Of a DNA stretch of 15,464 nt, positions 3,167 through 14,970 are shown piece after piece; positions within the stretch are counted from its first letter, which is position 1; each line of letters starts with the position of its first letter. A program made the position numbers and the translations under genes. The notes beneath the pieces are model-generated. The model had not been told where the DNA came from. It worked only from the letters and a program-made list of their open reading frames with translations, and searched no databases. The stretch comes from a virus (taxonomy: Duplodnaviria; Heunggongvirae; Uroviricota; Caudoviricetes), in the IMG/VR virus record IMGVR_UViG_2671180268_000006; one strand, 5' to 3'.

Positions 3167-3657
3167 GATTCGATAATTTTCAGAAACGGGTTAGTGGCTT
3201 TCTTCTGCCCCGCCAGGCCAATCAGACGCTGGCGGCTGCTGGGGTCGAGTCCGAGCATTGCCCCCGTGCTGCTCATCTCGGACTCCTGTTCTTTTTTGGC
3301 GGTCAGCTCCGGATTTTTGACCCTGCCGCCCATTGCACCGGTGATGGTGTTGCCCTGTATGGCAATATTTTTCACGGCACGTCGCCAGAACTCATAGGCC
3401 ACGCACCACCGCTCAAGTACCGCCAGGTCAGTCACGCACAGCAGGCCCTGACCGCAGAGTTCTTTGGTTGTCAGTTGCCACATGATCGTGGCGAGAGGGA
3501 GATCTTCTTCAGCGAACCACTCTGGTGGCTCAACACCTTTGATGGGCGTAAAAACAGGTTCATCTTTGTTCAGGGCTCGCTTGCCGGGGTTTCCGGCCAG
3601 CGCCTTGCGCGCCGTTGGCTTGGGGCGACGCCCGGAACGCCCCGCCGTTCCAGCCAT
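3163..3657 (-). CDS. Terminase small subunit (P27-family-like)
   Basis: Track ORF 3163..3666 begins at GTG with no spacing from AGGAG; the ATG at 3657 sits 8 nt downstream of AGGAG, giving 164 aa. Basic N-terminus ([13 protein letters not shown]) and position directly upstream of terL. Confidence 0.8.
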
Positions 3658-4636: not shown

Positions 4637-5130
4637 TGCTGCCCCCACAAACAGACTTCACGCTCAATCTCACGACGGGTCATCAGCCCTTTCCATTGCT
4701 TACCGCCAGCATATGTCCAGCGACATAGCTGGTCACATGCGCCTTTGATATAGCCCTGGTTTATTTTGCGAAGAAGCGTCGATGTTCTGAAATTGCCAGC
4801 GCCCACGTTGTAAACGAACGAGTAAAGAGCGCCGCGCGTTGTTTCCGGTATATCGACTTTGATGTACGGGTTAATTTGTCTGGCGACAGTGGCAAGGTCT
4901 TTATTCAGGAGGGCTTTGCATTCTGCTTCGGTATACGTTTTACCGAGCATGATGTCTTTTCCGGTGTGTCCGTGACATACAGTCCATACACCAATGATAT
5001 CTTTGTATGGTATGTAGCTGACACCTTCCAGACCATCGTTACCACCTGGGCCAGTGATTAACACAGATGCTATAGCAACAGCCCCACCACCAATAGCAGC
5101 TGCAACAGCCTTGCGTAATGATGGCGACAT
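4633..5130 (-). CDS. R: SAR endolysin (phage-21 R-like lysozyme)
   Basis: 165 aa; N-terminal Gly/Ala-rich weakly hydrophobic SAR-like segment ([20 protein letters not shown]) followed by a lysozyme-like domain. Start overlaps S stop (TAATG). Match to phage 21 R is from memory. Confidence 0.88.
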
Positions 5131-5345
5131 TATTCACCTCTCGCAGCCTTACGCTTGTCTTCTCTTATTTTGAAATACAGATTTGTCAGATAAGTCAGAA
5201 GCCCCAGAAGCAGACTTCCCAGCACACCAATCGCAGCCCACTGTGATGGACTGACCTGATCCAACCACTGCAAAAACCAGTAGCCGGCACTGCCGGCGGA
5301 GGTGCCGTAGGCAATGCCTGTTGATATTTTTTCCATCTGATACAT
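5130..5345 (-). CDS. S: Class II holin / pinholin (phage-21 S-like) with dual-start motif
   Basis: 71 aa, [53 protein letters not shown]...; two in-frame ATGs at codons 1 and 4 (5345 and 5336), matching the S21 antiholin/holin arrangement as I recall it. Confidence 0.88.
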
Positions 5346-5376
5346 ATCCCGCCCCCCGACAGACCTGTGCTATCGG

Positions 5377-5411
5377 AAAGAAAAAAGGCCATCAGCAAAA
5401 CTCTGATGGCC
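5377..5411 (-). terminator. Candidate rho-independent terminator upstream of S
   Basis: Minus-strand hairpin GGCCATCAG(8-nt loop)CTGATGGCC (plus 5387-5411) followed by TTTTTTCTTT (plus A-run 5378-5386). Q-modified polymerase would be expected to read through. Confidence 0.45.
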
Positions 5412-6025
5412 TGAATCACCTTTACCAATATTGTATGAAAAAACACGCACGACTAATTGACAATAATTTTCATTTCCATTAAAAAAGATCGCGTAGCATT
5501 CTTAATTCATGAGGAACTTTACCCGCCAGCAATCTGAGTAGCGAAAGCTGTTCATCCCCAATGTTTTTGCTGGCGGGTCCTTTTTTCTACGGTCCTCCTC
5601 CCCGGAGGGGGGCATTTCATTATTTTTCTAATCGTTACTGGTGAGAAGGCGGAAGAAAAAGCCAGTTCTTCGCCCCTAAATAACAGCATGATTCCAGTCC
5701 ATGCAAAATCTGATTTCCAGCTCACACATACCGAGCACTGTACAAAAAACCGCCAGCCAAGGCAGTTAAGAGTGTGTTCCCGGGGTTTGCTTAGAATATT
5801 TTGTAAGTTGTCCGAAGAGATATTTACAACACCAGAATGATGAATCATCAGTCCCCTGCCAGAGGTTCACTACGTAACCTGACCGACAATGCACCATTCT
5901 GGTGCTGAAAAAAGAGCACTGGAACTGCAACAAAACAACATCACAGAACAGGAGATGGTAAGGAGTCAGACATTCCCACACAATATTGTGTCAGTGCAAA
6001 TAACAACCTTCGTCTCAAATCTCGC

Positions 6026-6100
<75 letters not shown>

Positions 6101-6103
6101 ATA

Positions 6104-6179
<76 letters not shown>

Positions 6180-6181
6180 GC

Positions 6182-6258
6182 TGGCCCACCACCGAGGACT
6201 CGAACCTCGCACCGTCAACTTAGAAGGTTGATGCTCTATCCGGATGAGCTAGTGGTGG
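6182..6258 (-). tRNA. tRNA-Arg (anticodon UCU), atypical C1-G72 acceptor pair
   Basis: TAGCTCA D-arm, anticodon stem TCAAC/GTTGA, loop CTTCTAA, T-arm CGAGG-TTCGAGT-CCTCG, acceptor CCACCAC/GTGGTGG, discriminator G, CCA encoded. The 5' nucleotide is C, not the usual G. Confidence 0.78.
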
Positions 6259-6259
6259 T

Positions 6260-6336
6260 TGGTGGCCCTTGCTGGACTTGAACCAGCGACCTGGCGATTA
6301 TGAGTCGCTCGCTCTGACCAACTGAGCTAAAGGGCC
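6260..6336 (-). tRNA. tRNA with CAU anticodon, ileX-like (tRNA-Ile2 via lysidine, or elongator Met)
   Basis: GGCCCTTTAGCTCAGTTGGTCAGAGCGAGCGACTCATAATCGCCAGGTCGCTGGTTCAAGTCCAGCAAGGGCCACCA; acceptor GGCCCTT/AAGGGCC; anticodon loop CTCATAA. Similarity to E. coli ileX is from memory. Confidence 0.85.
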
Positions 6337-6525: not shown

Positions 6526-7095
6526 TTAAAACCGCATCAACCGCTCCACCAGTTGCTCTTTACGGGCAACGATCCACCCGTGTTGCTCCAGATAAAATTT
6601 AAACCGTTCCAGAGTACATACCATCGCATCGGCGGGTACCTTTTCCGTGAACTCAACCTGACCGTGTTTATCGAAGTGGCTCAGTAATGCGCATCCATCA
6701 TTTTCGATAGATGTGTTTTGTGCCGCTGGTGGCTGTTTCTGGTTGAAATAACAGTCTTCCAGTTTTTCGAACACTTCCCACGCCTGATCGGTTTCGAGCA
6801 TTTTGGCGTGACGGGCTGCGCCACGTTCTGTCCAGAGGATGAGGGAGCGAACGTTACGGGCAATTTTCACAGAAACTCTTAAAGAGTTTTCGTTCTTCAA
6901 CTCTCGTAACGCATCACCTTCTATCAGGAAAAAATGTTTACCTTCTATAAACCGTTCTTTGTTTCGATTGAAATTGTTTGTCAAACGCTGGCGCTCTGTT
7001 CCGTACAAATCAGCCAGCAGCTCTGTTGTCATGACAGGAAGATGGTTATGCGTAAGTGACGGGAGTTTTTCAATAGACGTGCGATTCATAGACAT
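6526..7095 (-). CDS. ORF6N-like (Bro-N/antirepressor-like) domain phage protein, function unknown
   Basis: Track ORF 6526..7287, but the first ATG with an upstream AAAGGA is at 7095 (MSMNRTSIEKLPSLTHNHLPVMTTELLADLYGTERQRL...), about 189 aa. Domain name is from recognition of this N-terminal pattern, not a search. Confidence 0.65.
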   Translation of the reverse strand: MSMNRTSIEKLPSLTHNHLPVMTTELLADLYGTERQRLTNNFNRNKERFIEGKHFFLIEGDALRELKNENSLRVSVKIARNVRSLILWTERGAARHAKMLETDQAWEVFEKLEDCYFNQKQPPAAQNTSIENDGCALLSHFDKHGQVEFTEKVPADAMVCTLERFKFYLEQHGWIVARKEQLVERLMRF

Positions 7096-7448
7096 GTCCT
7101 TTCGAATATTTTGATTTACCCCTTTTGAGAGGGTGACCGGGCGCTCAAAACCGTCGAAAGTCGGCGGGCGTATTTCCATTGCTGGTATTGTATTAGCCGC
7201 ACACCCGGTCATAAACCAAGAATTCTGGACACAAAAAAACCACATGGCTATCGGGTGTGGATACCGCTTTCGAGGTGTTTTGAGCACCGCGGGGAAATGT
7301 AAACTGCAAACCTGAAACTGTCAACACCGTCAGGTTCCAATCATCGGGTGGTGAGACGCACAGGGTTGGAACTACCGGGAAACCGACCGGCGAGCTTTTC
7401 AGCTCCCCCATGCGCCCCACCATAATTCAGATGTGCGCGTGCATACGA

Positions 7449-7475
7449 CAATAAAAAACACGCTCGCGGCGTGTG
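7449..7475 (-). terminator. Candidate tR'-like terminator downstream of Q
   Basis: Minus strand CACGC-CGCGA-GCGTG hairpin (plus 7459-7473) followed by TTTTTTATT (plus A-run 7451-7458), about 60-70 nt downstream of the candidate pR'. Confidence 0.45.
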
Positions 7476-7535
7476 TCTGTCGCGGTCTCTATCCGGGGTT
7501 CCAATCCCGACGCCAGATTTTGCTGGCGCGTGAGG

Positions 7536-7565
7536 AATATAGCCCCGGACAATGTGTCTGGTCAA
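7536..7565 (-). promoter_or_regulatory. Candidate late promoter pR' (TTGACC-18 nt-TATATT)
   Basis: On the minus strand just after the Q stop (7570): -35 TTGACC (plus 7560-7565), 18-nt spacer, -10 TATATT (plus 7536-7541). Position matches the lambdoid Q/pR'/tR' arrangement. Confidence 0.4.
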
Positions 7566-7569
7566 GCAC

Positions 7570-7956
7570 CTACATAATTCGTTCTACGTATCTGTCCATC
7601 TCCAGCCGGATATCAAGCATCATCAACATGCCATCAATAACCCCTTCCGCTTTCTGCAGGCGCTTGCCAATACAGGTATCCGAACACCCATGTTTCCGTG
7701 CCAGACTCATAAAAGTCATTCCACCTACGTAATAATCCACCAGCAAATCGTGCAAATCCTGATTTTTCTTGTTCAACCGGGCCATACAGCCACAAATTAT
7801 CATTGCATCATCATCAGAACACTGAGGGCGTGATTTCACTTTCGACGGAATTAACCCTTTAAAACCAGCAGCGATCGACGCCCAGGATACATCTTCATGA
7901 GTGTTTGCAGCCCAAGCCCCCCACCGTTCCATAACCTGCTGAATATCACGCGCCAT
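7570..7956 (-). CDS. Q: Antitermination protein Q (82/21-type)
   Basis: [64 protein letters not shown]... is typical of the non-lambda Q family. Start chosen at ATG 7956 (AGGTGA 6 nt upstream); track ORF begins 7 codons earlier at 7977. Confidence 0.85.
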
Positions 7957-8317
7957 CGTTATCACCTGTGATTTCATAAATCTTCACGCCCAGTCGCCCA
8001 CCAGGAACGAGCTGACCGCGCACAATATTGATTTCATCAAACTGCTCGTCGTCTATGAGTAGTCCGGCATGCGTCAGCGCATCCAGTGGTGCTTTCAGGA
8101 TATTGTCCAGGTCACGACGGCGCTTATCCGGTGGCTCTGCAATAATCTTTATCGCCAGCCTTCCGGACAGGTTTAATTTCAGCCGCTGCTGGCGAACAAT
8201 TAGCGTCACATCACGGCGATAACGCTCACCAACTTTTGATACAAAATATGTGCTGCCACGACGTCGCCAGTAAGTATTCACCGTCGGCGGATAAGGTAAA
8301 ATAAACTCATGGCGCAT
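7946..8317 (-). CDS. rusA: RusA Holliday-junction resolvase
   Basis: 123 aa; [14 protein letters not shown]-terminus and [29 protein letters not shown] acidic catalytic region characteristic of RusA. Start overlaps the stop of the upstream 85-aa ORF. Confidence 0.9.
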
Positions 8318-10077: not shown

Positions 10078-10983
10078 CTATATTTCCAGACACCTGTTAT
10101 CACTTAACCCATTACTGGCTTGCTGCCGTAGATATTCCCGTGGCGAGCGATAACCCAGTGCACTATGCGGATGCCATTCGTTATAATGCTCGAACGCCTC
10201 TGCAAGGTTCTTTGCTGCCGTTAACCCGTCTGGTTTGGGCATGACACTGATGTAGTCACGCTTTATCGTTTTCACGAAGCTCTCTGCTATGCCGTTACTC
10301 TCCGGACTCCGCACCGCCGTGCTCTTCGGTTCAAGCCCCAACATCCGGGCAAACTGCCGTGTTTCATTAGCCCGGTAGCATGAACCATTATCCGTCAGCC
10401 ACTCTACTGGAGACGCCGGAAGCTCGTTGCCGAAGCGGCGTTCCACCGCTCCCAGCATGACGTCCTGTACTGTTTCACTGTTGAAGCCGCCCGTAGTGAC
10501 CGCCCAGTGCAGTGCCTCACGGTCACAGCAGTCCAGCGCGAACGTGACTCGCAGTTTTTCTCCGTTATCACAGCGGAACTCGAACCCGTCAGAGCACCAT
10601 CGCTGATTACTTTCTTTCACAGCCACTCTGCCTGTATGTGCCCGTTTCGATGGCGGTACAGCAGGTTTTCGCTCAAGCAACAGCGCATTCTGGCGCATGA
10701 TCCGGTAAACACGTTTGGCATTGATCGCAGGCATACCATCAAGTTCTGCCTGTCTGCGAAGCAGCGCCCATACCCGACGATAACCATACGTGGGCAGCTC
10801 TCCGATAACATGGTGTATACGGAGAAGCACATCCGTATCATCAGTGTGACGACTGTGGCGGCCATCCATCCAGTCATCGGTTCGTCTGAGAATGACGTGC
10901 AACTGCGCACGCGACACCCGGAGACAACGGCTGACTAAGCTTACTCCCCATCCCCGGGCAATAAGGGCGCGTGCGCTATCCAC
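10078..10983 (-). CDS. insD: IS2 transposase OrfB (InsD), normally made as InsCD fusion by -1 frameshift
   Basis: 301-aa ORF with rve/DDE-type integrase core (…WCSDGFEF…, …LTDNGSCY…, …ESNGIAESF…); overlaps orfA over 10941-10983 where the A6G slippery site sits. Confidence 0.85.
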
Positions 10984-11306
10984 TTTTTTGCCCGTCCATA
11001 TTCAACGGCTTCTTTGAGGAGTTCATTTTCCATCGTTTTCTTGCCGAGCAGGCGCTGGAGTTCTTTAATCTGCTTCATGGCGGCAGCAAGTTCAGAGGCA
11101 GGAACAACCTGTTCTCCGGCGGCGACAGCAGTAAGACTTCCTTCCTGGTATTGCTTACGCCAGAGAAATAACTGGCTGGCTGCTACACCATGTTGCCGGG
11201 CAACGAGGGAGACCGTCATCCCCGGTTCAAAGCTCTGCTGAACAATTGCGATCTTTTCCTGTGTGGTACGCCGTCTGCGTTTCTCCGGCCCTAAGACATC
11301 AATCAT
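10941..11306 (-). CDS. insC: IS2 OrfA (InsC)
   Basis: 121 aa from [41 protein letters not shown]... (helix-turn-helix region); track ORF starts 15 codons earlier at a non-ATG codon. Confidence 0.85.
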
Positions 11307-11397
11307 CTGTACTCCAATGACTAGTCTAAAAACTAGTATTAAGACTATCACTTATTTAAGTGATACTGGTTGTCTGGAGATTCAGGGGGCCAGTCTA

Positions 11398-11514: not shown

Positions 11515-11802
<288 letters not shown>

Positions 11803-12140: not shown

Positions 12141-12394
12141 ACAACCAGACAATGACTTTTACCCCTGAACAATTGCGTAAACACGCGCAGGAAATGCTGC
12201 GTCATGCTGAACAACTCGAAAAAACGGGCATAACAAAAGACGCTATCCGTAAAGATATGGTACCCGCGCTTCGGGAACTGATGCAGGCGAAGCATCGCGC
12301 ACAGAAAGCAGTAGATGAGCTGGTGGACTGTGTGGCAGAGCTGGAAACCAGAGTCGGAAAGTTTGAAAAACTGGTGCAGGAGGTGCTGCGCTGA
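12137..12394 (+). CDS. Conserved small phage protein (second copy of the 85-aa coiled-coil protein)
   Basis: 85-aa ORF differing from the 8317..8574 product at about six positions; GGAG 8 nt upstream of the TTG at 12137, first ATG at 12152. Confidence 0.6.
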   Translation: MNNQTMTFTPEQLRKHAQEMLRHAEQLEKTGITKDAIRKDMVPALRELMQAKHRAQKAVDELVDCVAELETRVGKFEKLVQEVLR

Positions 12395-12500
12395 TGCGCC
12401 ATGAGTTTATTTTACCTTATCCGCCGACGGTGAATACTTACTGGCGACGTCGTGACAACACATATTTTGTATCAAAAGCCGGTGAGCGTTATCGCCGGGA
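12394..12500 (+). pseudogene. rusA 5' fragment (about 35 codons) joined to a Q gene
   Basis: [35 protein letters not shown] parallels the RusA N-terminus at 8317-8211, then diverges at an ambiguous base (n at 12501); the catalytic region is absent. Confidence 0.7.
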
Positions 12501-12513
12501 NGCAGGTCAAAAA

Positions 12514-13368
12514 ATGAAACTGGAAGATTTACCGAAATACTACTCCCCAAAATCCCCTTGCCTGACCGATGCATCGGCCTCAACGTCAAAAGATGCGCTG
12601 AGTATCACTGATGTGATGGCCGCGCAGGGCATGACACAGAATCGGGCTGAGATGGGGTTTTCTGCGTTCCTGGGGAAAATGGGCATCAGTATGAATGACA
12701 GGGCGCGGGCAACAGAATTACTGGCAGATTATGCACTCAGTCGGTGCGATCGTGTGGCGGCGTTGAGAAAACTTCCGGCAGAAATAAAACCGGTAGTGAT
12801 GCGCATTATGGCTTCGTACGCTTTTGAGGATTATGCCCGCAGCGCAGCGAGTAAAAAGCAGTGCCCTTGTTGCTATGGGGAAAAATTTATTGAAAGCGTA
12901 GTTTTTACAAACAAGGTCCAGTATCCGGATGGTAAGCCGCCGGTATGGGCAAAGTGTACGAAAGGTGTGTATCCGTCTTACTGGGAAGAATGGAAAAAAG
13001 TCAGGGAGGTGGTAAAAGTTGCCTGTCCGGAGTGTGGCGGAAAGGGTGAGGTTTCCACCGCCTGTAAGGATTGCCGTGGGCGTGGTGTCGCCATTCATCG
13101 TGAAGAGTCGGTAAAACGTGGTATGCCTGTTATCAGAGACTGCCAGCGTTGTGGTGGTCGTGGCTATGAAAGACTACCATCAACGGAGGCATTTAATGCT
13201 ATATGCGAGGTGACAAACCAGATAACACGCGCGTCATGGGAAAAAACAGTTAAGAAATTCTATGATGCGCTGGTGACTCGGTTTGATATTGAAGAAGCAT
13301 GGGCTGAGCGGCAGTTAAAAAAGGTAACTAGGTTGATTTTTCCGGAATCTGTGGTAAATTCGTCATAA
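12514..13368 (+). CDS. Q: Antitermination protein Q, lambda-type, with expanded Cys-rich (CxxCxGxG) region
   Basis: From ATG 12514: MKLEDLPKYYSPKSPCLTDASASTSKDALSITDVMAAQGM... parallels lambda Q (HSPKSP...DVMAAMGM, recalled from memory). Three CxxCxGxG-like motifs (CPECGGKG, CKDCRGRG, CQRCGGRG). 284 aa, longer than lambda Q; no strong SD upstream, so start is tentative. Confidence 0.72.
   Translation: MKLEDLPKYYSPKSPCLTDASASTSKDALSITDVMAAQGMTQNRAEMGFSAFLGKMGISMNDRARATELLADYALSRCDRVAALRKLPAEIKPVVMRIMASYAFEDYARSAASKKQCPCCYGEKFIESVVFTNKVQYPDGKPPVWAKCTKGVYPSYWEEWKKVREVVKVACPECGGKGEVSTACKDCRGRGVAIHREESVKRGMPVIRDCQRCGGRGYERLPSTEAFNAICEVTNQITRASWEKTVKKFYDALVTRFDIEEAWAERQLKKVTRLIFPESVVNSS
13333..13360 (+). 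promoter_or_regulatory. Candidate pR'-like promoter overlapping the Q 3' end (TTGATT-16 nt-TAAATT)
   Basis: -35 TTGATT at 13333-13338, 16-nt spacer, -10 TAAATT at 13355-13360, just before the Q stop (13366-13368). Pattern only. Confidence 0.3.
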
Positions 13369-13470: not shown

Positions 13471-13546
13471 GGCCCTTTAGCTCAGTGGTGAGAGCGAGCG
13501 ACTCATAATCGCCAGGTCGCTGGTTCAAATCCAGCAAGGGCCACCA
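13471..13546 (+). tRNA. tRNA with CAU anticodon, ileX/ileZ-like (tRNA-Ile2 or Met)
   Basis: GGCCCTTTAGCTCAGTGGTGAGAGCGAGCGACTCATAATCGCCAGGTCGCTGGTTCAAATCCAGCAAGGGCCACCA; acceptor GGCCCTT/AAGGGCC, anticodon loop CTCATAA, CCA encoded. Differs at a few positions from the 6260..6336 copy. Confidence 0.85.
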
Positions 13547-13646
13547 TCACAAACCGCCATTAGCTTATCAGGAAGAGCAGACGACACGATAACAGGGTTG
13601 TTGGTGCGGGGGCGGGTCCCCGATGGCGGTCCATTATCGGTATTCA

Positions 13647-13723
13647 GCGTTGTTAGCTCAGCCGGACAGAGCAATTGCCTTCTAAGCAATCGGTCACTGG
13701 TTCGAATCCAGTACAGCGCGCCA
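13647..13723 (+). tRNA. tRNA-Arg (anticodon UCU)
   Basis: GCGTTGTTAGCTCAGCCGGACAGAGCAATTGCCTTCTAAGCAATCGGTCACTGGTTCGAATCCAGTACAGCGCGCCA; acceptor GCGTTGT/ACAGCGC (one G-U), anticodon loop CTTCTAA, T-loop GGTTCGAATCC. Confidence 0.85.
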
Positions 13724-14354: not shown

Positions 14355-14578
14355 CCGGGTATCAGTTAGCGGGAGAAATTTTTAAATACTTCACAATTCA
14401 GGCGGTTGACTGTTGTCTGGTTTGCGGGGAGTTTGTTAAAAGAAACTGGCATGGTGAATCCCCCTGTGCGGAGGGGCAATCAGCGAGTAGGTATATGGGA
14501 TAATCGCGGATTCAGGTGCTGGTACTGAATTCACCGGGAGGCACCCGGCACCATGCAATGGCACATAGCGCCACTCTC

Positions 14579-14614
14579 CAGCCCCTCTCCGGAGGGGCTG
14601 TTTATATTGATTTT
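14579..14614 (+). terminator. Rho-independent terminator in cargo island
   Basis: CAGCCCCT-CTCCGG-AGGGGCTG hairpin followed by TTTATATTGATTTT on the plus strand; on the minus strand the same hairpin has no T-run after it. Confidence 0.5.
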
Positions 14615-14634: not shown

Positions 14635-14970
14635 TTATGGACTTTGTTGTTTTAGTCCATAAGGACATATTTGCAGAGTGCAACGGTTATTAAAGCATTC
14701 ATTCAATACGTTATCTGTATTTGTAGGGCATTCCTGGCTATTTTTGATTGAATTCCAGAATGTTTTATTGAATGGTACTACGTTGTAAATGGTTACAGGT
14801 AGCACTTTGTTATTGAGCATGATGCCTGTGTGAGTCAGTGTAAATATACTTTCAGGAGGTAAGAAAGCATCCGATTGATACCAGATTATTAATTTTATTT
14901 TACTCCATATGACTGAAAAAGATATTCCGCATGATGGCTGGATAACTGTATCAATCACAATCCACTTCAT
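14635..14970 (-). CDS. Hypothetical low-GC protein (111 aa), function unknown
   Basis: ATG start with AAGGAAAC 5-6 nt upstream; markedly AT-rich with several Cys residues near the C-terminus; no obvious signal peptide. Convergent with the 108-aa ORF. Confidence 0.55.

Follow-up and report, generated by a model that had tools for sequence, protein, structure and literature searches.

Moron-site small RNAs (sRNAs) of prophages, among them AsxR, AgvB, Esr41 and the Pas RNAs, rewire core regulation in pathogenic Escherichia coli. Lambdoid prophages of O157 strains carry 'convergent sRNA pairs' in this site, downstream of PR', one RNA of each pair being late-sense and the other antisense (Tree et al., 2014; PMC4104026). 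One of the RNAs reported there, EcOnc32 from prophage Sp3 of O157:H7 Sakai, is ~112 nt long, was crosslinked to Hfq and verified by northern blot, and has a predicted Rho-independent terminator; its peak in crosslinking and analysis of cDNA (CRAC) with Hfq (901574-901662, minus strand) is second only to that of AgvB1 in Table S2 (PMC4104026). PasA and PasC have been described from enteropathogenic E. coli E2348/69 (Pearl Mizrahi et al., 2021, PMC8550237; Zhu et al., 2026, preprint, doi 10.64898/2026.05.13.724894). Here we analyze a 15,464-nt stretch of viral DNA (Caudoviricetes; IMG/VR record IMGVR_UViG_2671180268_000006), hereafter the window, and in it a plus-strand unit at 5457-5588, probably an sRNA gene that a lambdoid prophage carries opposite to its late operon.

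The unit appears to be an unnamed, widespread branch of the known moron-site prophage sRNAs. It is absent from Rfam and is not detectable by BLAST from PasA or PasC; if expressed, it would be a widespread accessory regulator with a seed unlike those of its characterized relatives, and annotation pipelines would miss such a unit. As neither this class of RNA nor its genomic logic is new, the practical gain is modest.

A putative promoter-terminator unit opposite the late operon

The window contains the late region of a lambdoid prophage, which runs on the minus strand, and the unit lies antisense to it between four tRNA genes and an S21-type holin, within ~680 nt past the holin (toward the tRNAs) that hold no credible open reading frame (ORF). 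This position, downstream of Q and PR', upstream of the lysis genes and opposite the late operon, is the one occupied by moron-site antisense sRNA units. We found no plausible coding gene on either strand of 5346-6025 and no credible ORF overlapping the unit, in agreement with a first-pass annotation of the window, which had seen no plus-strand protein gene nearby. Two coding possibilities were considered and set aside: a small peptide, for which the 10-codon ORF at 5508-5540 has no Shine-Dalgarno sequence and changes an amino acid with every difference between variants, and a type I toxin-antitoxin system (hok/sok-like), for which the only ORFs are 10-37 codons long, are not hydrophobic and would be frame-shifted by indels between variants.

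The promoter-like element of the first-pass annotation, a TTGACA -35 hexamer followed after a 17-nt spacer by TAAAAA, was confirmed at its coordinates (Table 1). The exact composite TTGACA-17-TAAAAA, a pattern picked after the sequence was seen, has one match in the window and none in 200 shuffles. TTGACA is invariant across all five sequence variants of the unit, and nearly every variant examined has TAAAAA 17 nt after it, the exception being Ecol656 with TAAAAG. For the AR0086 variant, a generic promoter scan calls TTGACA-18-AAAAAT (10/12).

Downstream of the promoter stands hairpin 1, whose outer arms ACCCGCCAGCAA (5521-5532) and TTGCTGGCGGGT (5567-5578) are 100% complementary and pair over 12 bp, 8 of them G-C; the hairpin had been annotated correctly, with a stem given as 11 bp. 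The sequence directly after it is UCCUUUUUU / CCTTTTTTCT. On the transcribed strand the GC-rich stem runs directly into a U-tract, as in an intrinsic terminator, and on the minus strand no U-tract follows the stem; the terminator is therefore directional. Hairpin 1 as a whole is predicted to be a long interrupted hairpin, in which the 34 nt between the arms would fold into an 8-bp inner helix (UGAGUAGC, 5535-5542, and GCUGUUCA, 5547-5554) capped by GAAA and followed by a C-rich 12-nt bulge (CAUCCCCAAU, 5555-5566). This inner helix relies on G.U pairs and forms on the plus strand only. Folding the RNA, a check that the first-pass annotation had suggested, gave -31.6 kcal/mol for the plus strand at 5492-5588 (z -4.1, none of 200 shuffles as good), better than the complementary minus strand (-28.3 kcal/mol, z -2.7), which has no inner helix. 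Together, a sigma-70-type promoter of its own (with a weak -10) and a Rho-independent terminator would delimit an RNA of ~95 nt, within the ~50-270 nt looked for in such units.

The second annotated hairpin, with T-rich sequence after it, is also present (Table 1). It is strong in the window type, and the predicted energy falls to -4.8 kcal/mol in the AR0086 type, which is the commonest, and to -6.9 kcal/mol in the plasmid (iss-associated) type. The tandem terminators of the first-pass annotation thus hold in part, in that hairpin 1 is conserved and the variants met most often have a weak hairpin 2 or one that is destroyed; the tandem arrangement is a trait of the window variant and not of the element, and hairpin 2 is possibly a variant-specific back-up terminator. 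We also note that the G-run of hairpin 2 (5607-5612 in the window; homologues L013, L015, L024, L045 and others) varies from 4 to 6 G among otherwise identical copies, which could be homopolymer slippage or sequencing error.

With this arrangement, transcription from the sigma-70 promoter would start near 5491-5493, 6-8 nt after the -10 (at G5491 or G5493), and RNA polymerase would stop at the GC-rich hairpin and its U-tract, within which the 3' end is expected; some read-through to hairpin 2 may occur in the window variant. The predicted RNA would consist of a variable, single-stranded 5' region, the least conserved part of it, and a highly conserved 3' stem-loop ending in U6. If the RNA behaves like EcOnc32 and Esr41, its 3' hairpin and U-tail would bind Hfq, and base-pairing with other RNAs in trans would fall to what stays unpaired, the 5' body and perhaps the C-rich bulge. 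A search inside the window for trans targets of the 5' body returned a best duplex of -25.8 kcal/mol, and shuffled controls were better (mean -27.4 kcal/mol). The RNA may additionally damp read-through into the lysis genes in cis, because it matches the late transcript with perfect complementarity in a stretch that lies 150-250 nt before the holin start, beside the sense-strand terminator T2. Lambda oop and P22 sar are likewise short RNAs that arise from a promoter of their own against a phage operon and end at an intrinsic terminator; both overlap the coding or ribosome-binding region of the target gene, whereas the window RNA overlaps only this untranslated stretch.

Relationship to EcOnc32, Esr41 and the Pas RNAs

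By its coordinates and the sequence of the northern probe, the antisense unit of Sakai Sp3 was identified as EcOnc32. It reads TTGACA-17-ATAGAA, ~68 nt, GCCAGCGCAGA-(18)-TCTGCGCTGGC-TCTTTTTT, and is flanked by an STnc100-like RNA on one side and, on the other, by a sense terminator that precedes the holin. The window unit has the same place, from the sense terminator next to an S21-type holin to the moron or STnc100-like RNA, and the same antisense orientation. The two promoters are identical over 12 nt at the -35 (ATTGACAATAAT), have spacers of equal length (17 nt) and each have a -10 rich in A; the distance from the end of the -35 to the stem is 65 nt in the window and 74 nt in EcOnc32. Both terminators have GCCAGC / GCTGGC arms and a UCUUUUUU-type tail, and the adjacent sense terminator, which in Sp3 is the counterpart of T2, starts with GGCCATCAG. 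The bodies, however, are largely unlike, the window terminator has a loop of 34 nt that includes an inner helix, compared with 18 nt in EcOnc32, and the outer stem of the window hairpin is extended by CCC/GGG.

Another relative, the Sp5 unit, lies in the Stx2 prophage Sp5 of Sakai (L006, 8097-8202, minus strand), between an esterase gene disrupted by an insertion sequence (IS) and DUF1378/DUF826 ORFs upstream of the holin, and reads TTGACAATAA..CATTAAAAA..UUUUUCUCCAUAGG..CCGCCAGCG/CGCUGGCGG-U7. It matches the window unit more closely than EcOnc32 does, both in the promoter (TTGACAATAA in the -35 region, CATTAAAAA around its -10) and in the terminator (CCGCCAGC / GCTGGCGG). It is not among the Hfq peaks of Table S2 in Tree et al. 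(2014; PMC4104026). Identification of this relative as hokW/sokW was rejected, the neighboring ORFs being DUF1378 and DUF826 and not Hok.

Whole units were then aligned globally and scored against dinucleotide shuffles. The window unit reached z 5.3 against EcOnc32 (0/1000 shuffles), 4.3 against the Sp5 unit and 2.8 against Esr41 (13/1000), and the AR0086 variant 7.0 against EcOnc32. Once the promoter was removed, the RNA part of the window unit scored z 2.6-3.2 against the same three RNAs, and most of the alignment signal is located in the promoter and terminator. With Esr41, of which both are clear relatives, EcOnc32 aligned at z 7.8 and the Sp5 unit at z 8.9, and EcOnc32 matched the Rfam Esr41 model over its full length at a sub-threshold 32.3 bits (E 1e-4). 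Judged by these alignments, EcOnc32 and the Sp5 unit would bridge the window unit and Esr41, and the window unit is probably a distant member of the EcOnc32/Sp5/Esr41 group with a different body. The design and synteny in common with EcOnc32, the z score of the pair and the conservation described below favor the proposal of the first-pass annotation, a ~100-nt sRNA unit with its own promoter between the tRNAs and S. By eye, the pair after GCCAGC is A-U in the window and PasA, and PasC, EcOnc32 and the Sp5 unit have G-C there; one position further on, the window has A-U, PasA and EcOnc32 have C-G, and a variant of EcOnc32 has U-A.

Esr41, an Hfq-dependent sRNA of the enterohemorrhagic E. coli island SpLE1, has the same TTGACA-17-(-10) promoter layout and a terminator of the form CGCC(G/A)GC...GCUGGCG plus U-tract (CGCCGGC...GCUGGCG-U7 at the Esr41 locus itself), and its model aligns with the window unit end to end on the correct strand. 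The window RNA differs in lacking the 5' hairpin, the UUUUCUCCAU seed and the GGGG-UAU-CCCC helix; it would be ~95 nt long as opposed to 74 nt, and it lies in a prophage late region rather than in the SpLE1 island. AsxR and AgvB (Rfam RF02703 and RF02702) resemble it in being prophage-encoded at the moron site, antisense to the late operon and equipped with their own promoter, with a conserved 3' end and a variable 5' end; convergence with an STnc100-type RNA is an AsxR/AgvB trait. They are shorter (51-60 nt) and are built on another core, GUAUCUCAUGC..CCCGAACCCAYUCGGGC, which is conserved in AsxR, AgvB and EcOnc03, none of which matches the window. The core is absent from the window and no Rfam match to it appeared up to E 10, while AsxR was found in Sakai Sp5 as a positive control. 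The gathering score of the Esr41 family (RF02676, 102 bits) is not reached by the window unit either; as scored by these models, the unit falls outside Rfam's Esr41, AsxR and AgvB families.

The common layout can be written as TTGACA-N55-85-GCCAGC-N13-43-GCTGGC, a pattern with one match in each of four independently chosen loci (PasA, PasC, the Sp5 unit and EcOnc32), one in the window and 1/200 in shuffles; every one of the composite matches runs against the late operon. PasA is situated ~220 nt upstream of the holin; PasC is today separated from the holin by two insertion sequences. Both Pas RNAs have a TTGACA -35, a -10-like hexamer containing T and A 17 nt later, and a terminator with GCCAGC / GCTGGC arms and a U-tract, and the PasA terminator loop contains CGAAAG, as does the window RNA. 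Their bodies are unrelated to that of the window unit, and the whole-unit alignment z is only ~2.2. A covariance model built from the EcOnc32 and Sp5 types only, here called CM R1, matched the AR0086 homologue at 18.1 bits (E 0.033), PasC at E 0.019 and PasA at E 0.31. A MAFFT alignment of EcOnc32, PasA, PasC and a further E2348/69 unit (unit 2, below) misaligned the promoters, and no model was built from it. PasB, in a tail-gene region, is irrelevant to the unit.

The convergent architecture of the published pairs was confirmed in Sakai Sp5, where Rfam places STnc100 (plus strand) and AsxR (minus strand) tail to tail. The AR0086 homologue is convergent with STnc100 (L002, 3500-3688), as that architecture requires. 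Additional antisense units were seen at two of the loci. Downstream of the unit homologue in E. coli AR_0086 is a second, shorter one (L002, 3405-3500, plus strand), with TTGCAA-18-TATTAT and a terminator at 3472-3493, which abuts the STnc100 terminator. Unit 2 of E2348/69 (L004, 2762-2864, minus strand) is unnamed, lies downstream of PasA and reads TTGACA ... GCCAGCG/CGCTGGC-U7 (CM R1 E 1e-4). Tandem antisense sRNA genes seem to be common at these loci.

Conservation and competing explanations

The 240 nt around the unit are present in 1427 of the 5426 complete E. coli genomes (~26%), at 915 chromosomal and 643 plasmid places in all. Nine genomes have the exact window type, and the others are 82-88% identical to it. 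With one genome per species, E. coli and Shigella flexneri were the sole species with true matches. The hairpin loop served as anchor for a scan that left the stems free to vary; it returned 49 viral loci, and the stems proved essentially invariant. There are only about five sequence types, which are closely related; their stems are invariant save for one G.U-compatible change and one A.C mismatch. Chromosomal copies lie upstream of the holin in prophages with different morons. When 5340-6030 was compared with 50,697 phage records, megablast found nothing and sensitive blastn short pieces only; Rfam gave nothing in 5346-6025 at the gathering threshold and chance-level hits only at E 10. The exact unit sequence was not found in the searchable literature, and a search for 'EcOnc32' gave nothing useful. 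Of the K-12 prophages, DLP12 has only the holin in common with the locus, and the idea of an nmpC promoter relic was dropped. In Qin, the equivalent spot is taken by ynfU, a gene for a small zinc-binding protein antisense to the late genes just upstream of the holin gene essQ (4806-4976, plus strand, L012), with no similarity to the unit.

The first-pass annotation had tied its reading to conservation of the hairpin. Hairpin 1 and its U-tail are kept well above the flanking non-coding DNA, with 10/70 variable columns as opposed to 97/226 when spacer, 5' body, hairpin 2 and the DNA beyond are taken together (Fisher p 8e-6). Of the promoter columns, 5/29 vary (p 0.008). Hairpin 2 is not conserved (mean identity 0.75). 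The expanded 34-nt loop of hairpin 1 has 8/36 variable columns, compared with 43% in the flanks (p 0.027). The U-tail, which reads UCUUUUUUCU in other variants, has a mean identity of 0.96, and hairpin, tail and promoter together range from 0.90 to 0.96, compared with 0.915 for the holin coding sequence.

Holin and lysozyme are gone from one plasmid copy and two chromosomal copies that were examined. What remains is a cassette of ~350 bp beside an Rz fragment, comprising T2, the unit with its -35 and -10 intact, and ~130 nt downstream. The plasmid cassette adjoins iss (L010, 1456-1745, plasmid of strain 2013C-4991); in this remnant and the chromosomal ones (L008 and L011) the deletion endpoint lies exactly at the edge of T2. 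T2 belongs to the conserved cassette and is 100% identical in three intact prophage variants. The survival of the cassette after loss of holin and lysozyme argues against a purely cis role.

Several observations weigh against an sRNA gene at this site. The -10 lacks the conserved T at position 6, a weakness already remarked on in the first-pass annotation, and the generic promoter scan makes no call there. The terminator 'loop' of 34 nt is atypically long (3-8 nt is typical), and the terminator scan makes no call on hairpin 1 because the loop exceeds 8 nt. UUCUCCA, which never varies among the EcOnc32 and Sp5 units and also belongs to the consensus of Esr41, is absent from the window unit, where UUCUUAAUUCAUGAGG stands instead; with this seed missing, the unit could be a decayed copy. 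The best window match of CM R1 (5476-5589, plus strand), although full length, is marginal (13.8 bits, E 0.36 over 57 kb), and the end-to-end match of the Esr41 model over 5487-5584 (plus strand) is not significant (11.9 bits, E 4.5). BLAST similarity is the criterion of Zhu et al. (2026) for Pas RNAs, and BLAST of the window against the PasA and PasC loci (L004, L005) gave no match better than E 0.05 and none at the Pas genes. No sense-strand STnc100 partner was found in 5250-6100, even at E 10; the partner side is occupied instead by a structured sense hairpin (5826-5907) and the terminator T1. The stem mismatch of the plasmid variant, an A.C pair arising from a G-to-A change, is uncompensated, and the stems are otherwise nearly invariant across only about five closely related variants. 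Finally, EcOnc32 has Hfq-CRAC and northern support, and the Pas RNAs have northern data and RNA interaction by ligation and sequencing (RIL-seq), whereas the window RNA is a prediction from sequence.

These points bear differently on the other explanations that we considered. It is quite unlikely that the RNA works only in cis, by pairing with the late transcript upstream of the holin or being transcribed against it, and with T2 shields the lysis cassette of the lysogen from leaky transcription. Such a role would account for the perfect complementarity to the late transcript (duplex -59.8 kcal/mol) and for a promoter placed 45 nt from the holin-guarding T2, a combination of terminator and antisense promoter that recurs in Sakai Sp3 and in E2348/69 PP2, where the similarly placed terminator starts with GGCCGTCAG. 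No other sequence in the window pairs with the RNA better than shuffled controls, but this search covered only the 15-kb window, and the -35, -10 and hairpin are kept in remnants without holin and lysozyme, including the iss-carrying plasmid. Esr41 moreover acts or interacts in trans with Hfq. The same is reported of PasA (PMC8550237). Slightly less likely still is a locus that is not a gene, with a TTGACA-17-TAAAAA that is no working promoter and hairpins that are orphan plus-strand terminators against antisense transcription from the side of the lysis cassette. The weak -10 and the silent generic scan are what this would predict, and plus-strand genes do occur in related prophages, within the lysis cassette or past it (for example iss/bor and, between lysozyme and ydfR, an ORF of 90 aa); in the window, however, no plus-strand gene lies between holin and hairpin, the -35 is invariant and nearly every variant has TAAAAA at the 17-nt spacing, conservation of the promoter region exceeds the background, and the same promoter architecture precedes EcOnc32, a verified discrete RNA. 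The fallback offered in the first-pass annotation, that the hairpins merely stop read-in, is for our part less likely than the sRNA gene.

The unit might also be a decaying relic of an Esr41/EcOnc32-type sRNA gene, perhaps still transcribed, its seed and function lost, hitch-hiking with the lysis cassette and iss. The missing UUCUCCA, the weak -10, the uncompensated mismatch of the iss-associated variant, the insertion-like expansion of the terminator loop by 34 nt, and the confinement to Escherichia and Shigella with little diversity would all fit decay. Yet the expanded loop is itself conserved and forms a GNRA-capped helix, conservation of the hairpin, tail and promoter equals or nearly equals that of the holin coding sequence, and variable 5' regions are the rule in this sRNA class (PMC4104026), so that we hold decay to be improbable. 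All three explanations are less well supported than the sRNA gene proposed above.

Granted an sRNA gene, a more specific proposal can be made, which we advance as a speculation with little likelihood of holding in full: a distinct Esr41/EcOnc32 sub-family with a swapped seed, in which the conserved 34-nt terminator insert, with its GNRA-capped helix and C-rich bulge, is a second functional module, and whose cassette is kept on iss plasmids for the benefit of the host. Such a module might serve as a sponge for core sRNAs, as a binder of G-rich ribosome-binding sites, or as a cis brake on holin read-through.

Coordinates and neighboring features

The features of the unit and of its surroundings are collected in Table 1. 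In order, the late-region genes on the minus strand are portal, TerL, TerS, HNH endonuclease, Rz, lysozyme and the S21-type holin.

Table 1. Features of the antisense unit and of the surrounding late region (window positions).
Feature	Position	Strand	Remarks
-35 hexamer TTGACA	5457-5462	+	17-nt spacer to -10
-10-like hexamer TAAAAA	5480-5485	+	weak; T missing at position 6
Variable, mostly single-stranded 5' body	5486-5520	+	candidate seed region; mean pairwise identity 0.77
Predicted primary sRNA, ~92-98 nt	5491-5588	+	from promoter/terminator geometry
Hairpin 1 (terminator)	5521-5578	+	12-bp outer stem, 8-bp inner helix, C-rich bulge
U-rich tail CCUUUUUUCU	5579-5588	+	probable termination site; predicted Hfq-binding 3' end
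Hairpin 2	5592-5613	+	9 bp, -15.5 kcal/mol (window type), then CATTTCATTATTTTTC (T-rich); called by terminator scan
S21-type holin	5130-5345	-	then lysozyme, Rz
Sense-strand intrinsic terminator T2	5386-5412	-	~40 nt upstream of holin start, 45 nt from antisense -35; terminator scan
Sense-strand intrinsic terminator T1	5748-5767	-	after tRNA cluster
Four tRNA genes	6026-6336	-	
P1-immI-like module (ORF6N antirepressor, C4, isrK)	between tRNA genes and Q		
Q	7570-7977	-	

Between tRNA-Gly and T1, the late-sense strand carries the long interrupted hairpin at 5826-5907, which folds at -40.4 kcal/mol (z -6.3) on the minus strand as opposed to -23.2 kcal/mol on the plus strand, and which possibly takes the place of STnc100 in this prophage as partner on the sense strand. 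Phage SerU-LTIIb has sequence 71% identical to this region downstream of its own tRNA-Gly, with the hairpin only partly kept.

Directly downstream of Q, at the PR' position, lies a module like P1/P7 immI (and like Gifsy-1 isrK), with Rfam matches at 6526-7542 (minus strand) to isrK, C4 antisense RNA, c4-a1b1 and sRNA-Xcc1, followed by the ORF6N-domain antirepressor. Further along the window, an IS3-family element (10078-11351) truncates a DnaB-like helicase, and a fragment of IS21 IstB lies at 11518-11802. The region beyond it, to 15464, is a second prophage late-region fragment in the opposite orientation, with a Q of the PF03589 type (12394-13368), two tRNAs (13471-13723), STnc100 (14420-14609, plus strand) and an unannotated 111-aa ORF on the minus strand (14635-14970). 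Among the four tRNAs next to the unit, the one at 6260-6336 (minus strand) is called tRNA-Met (CAT) by ARAGORN; a near-identical gene in CFSAN029787 is annotated by RefSeq as tRNA-Ile, the usual ileZ-like lysidine tRNA of lambdoid prophages.

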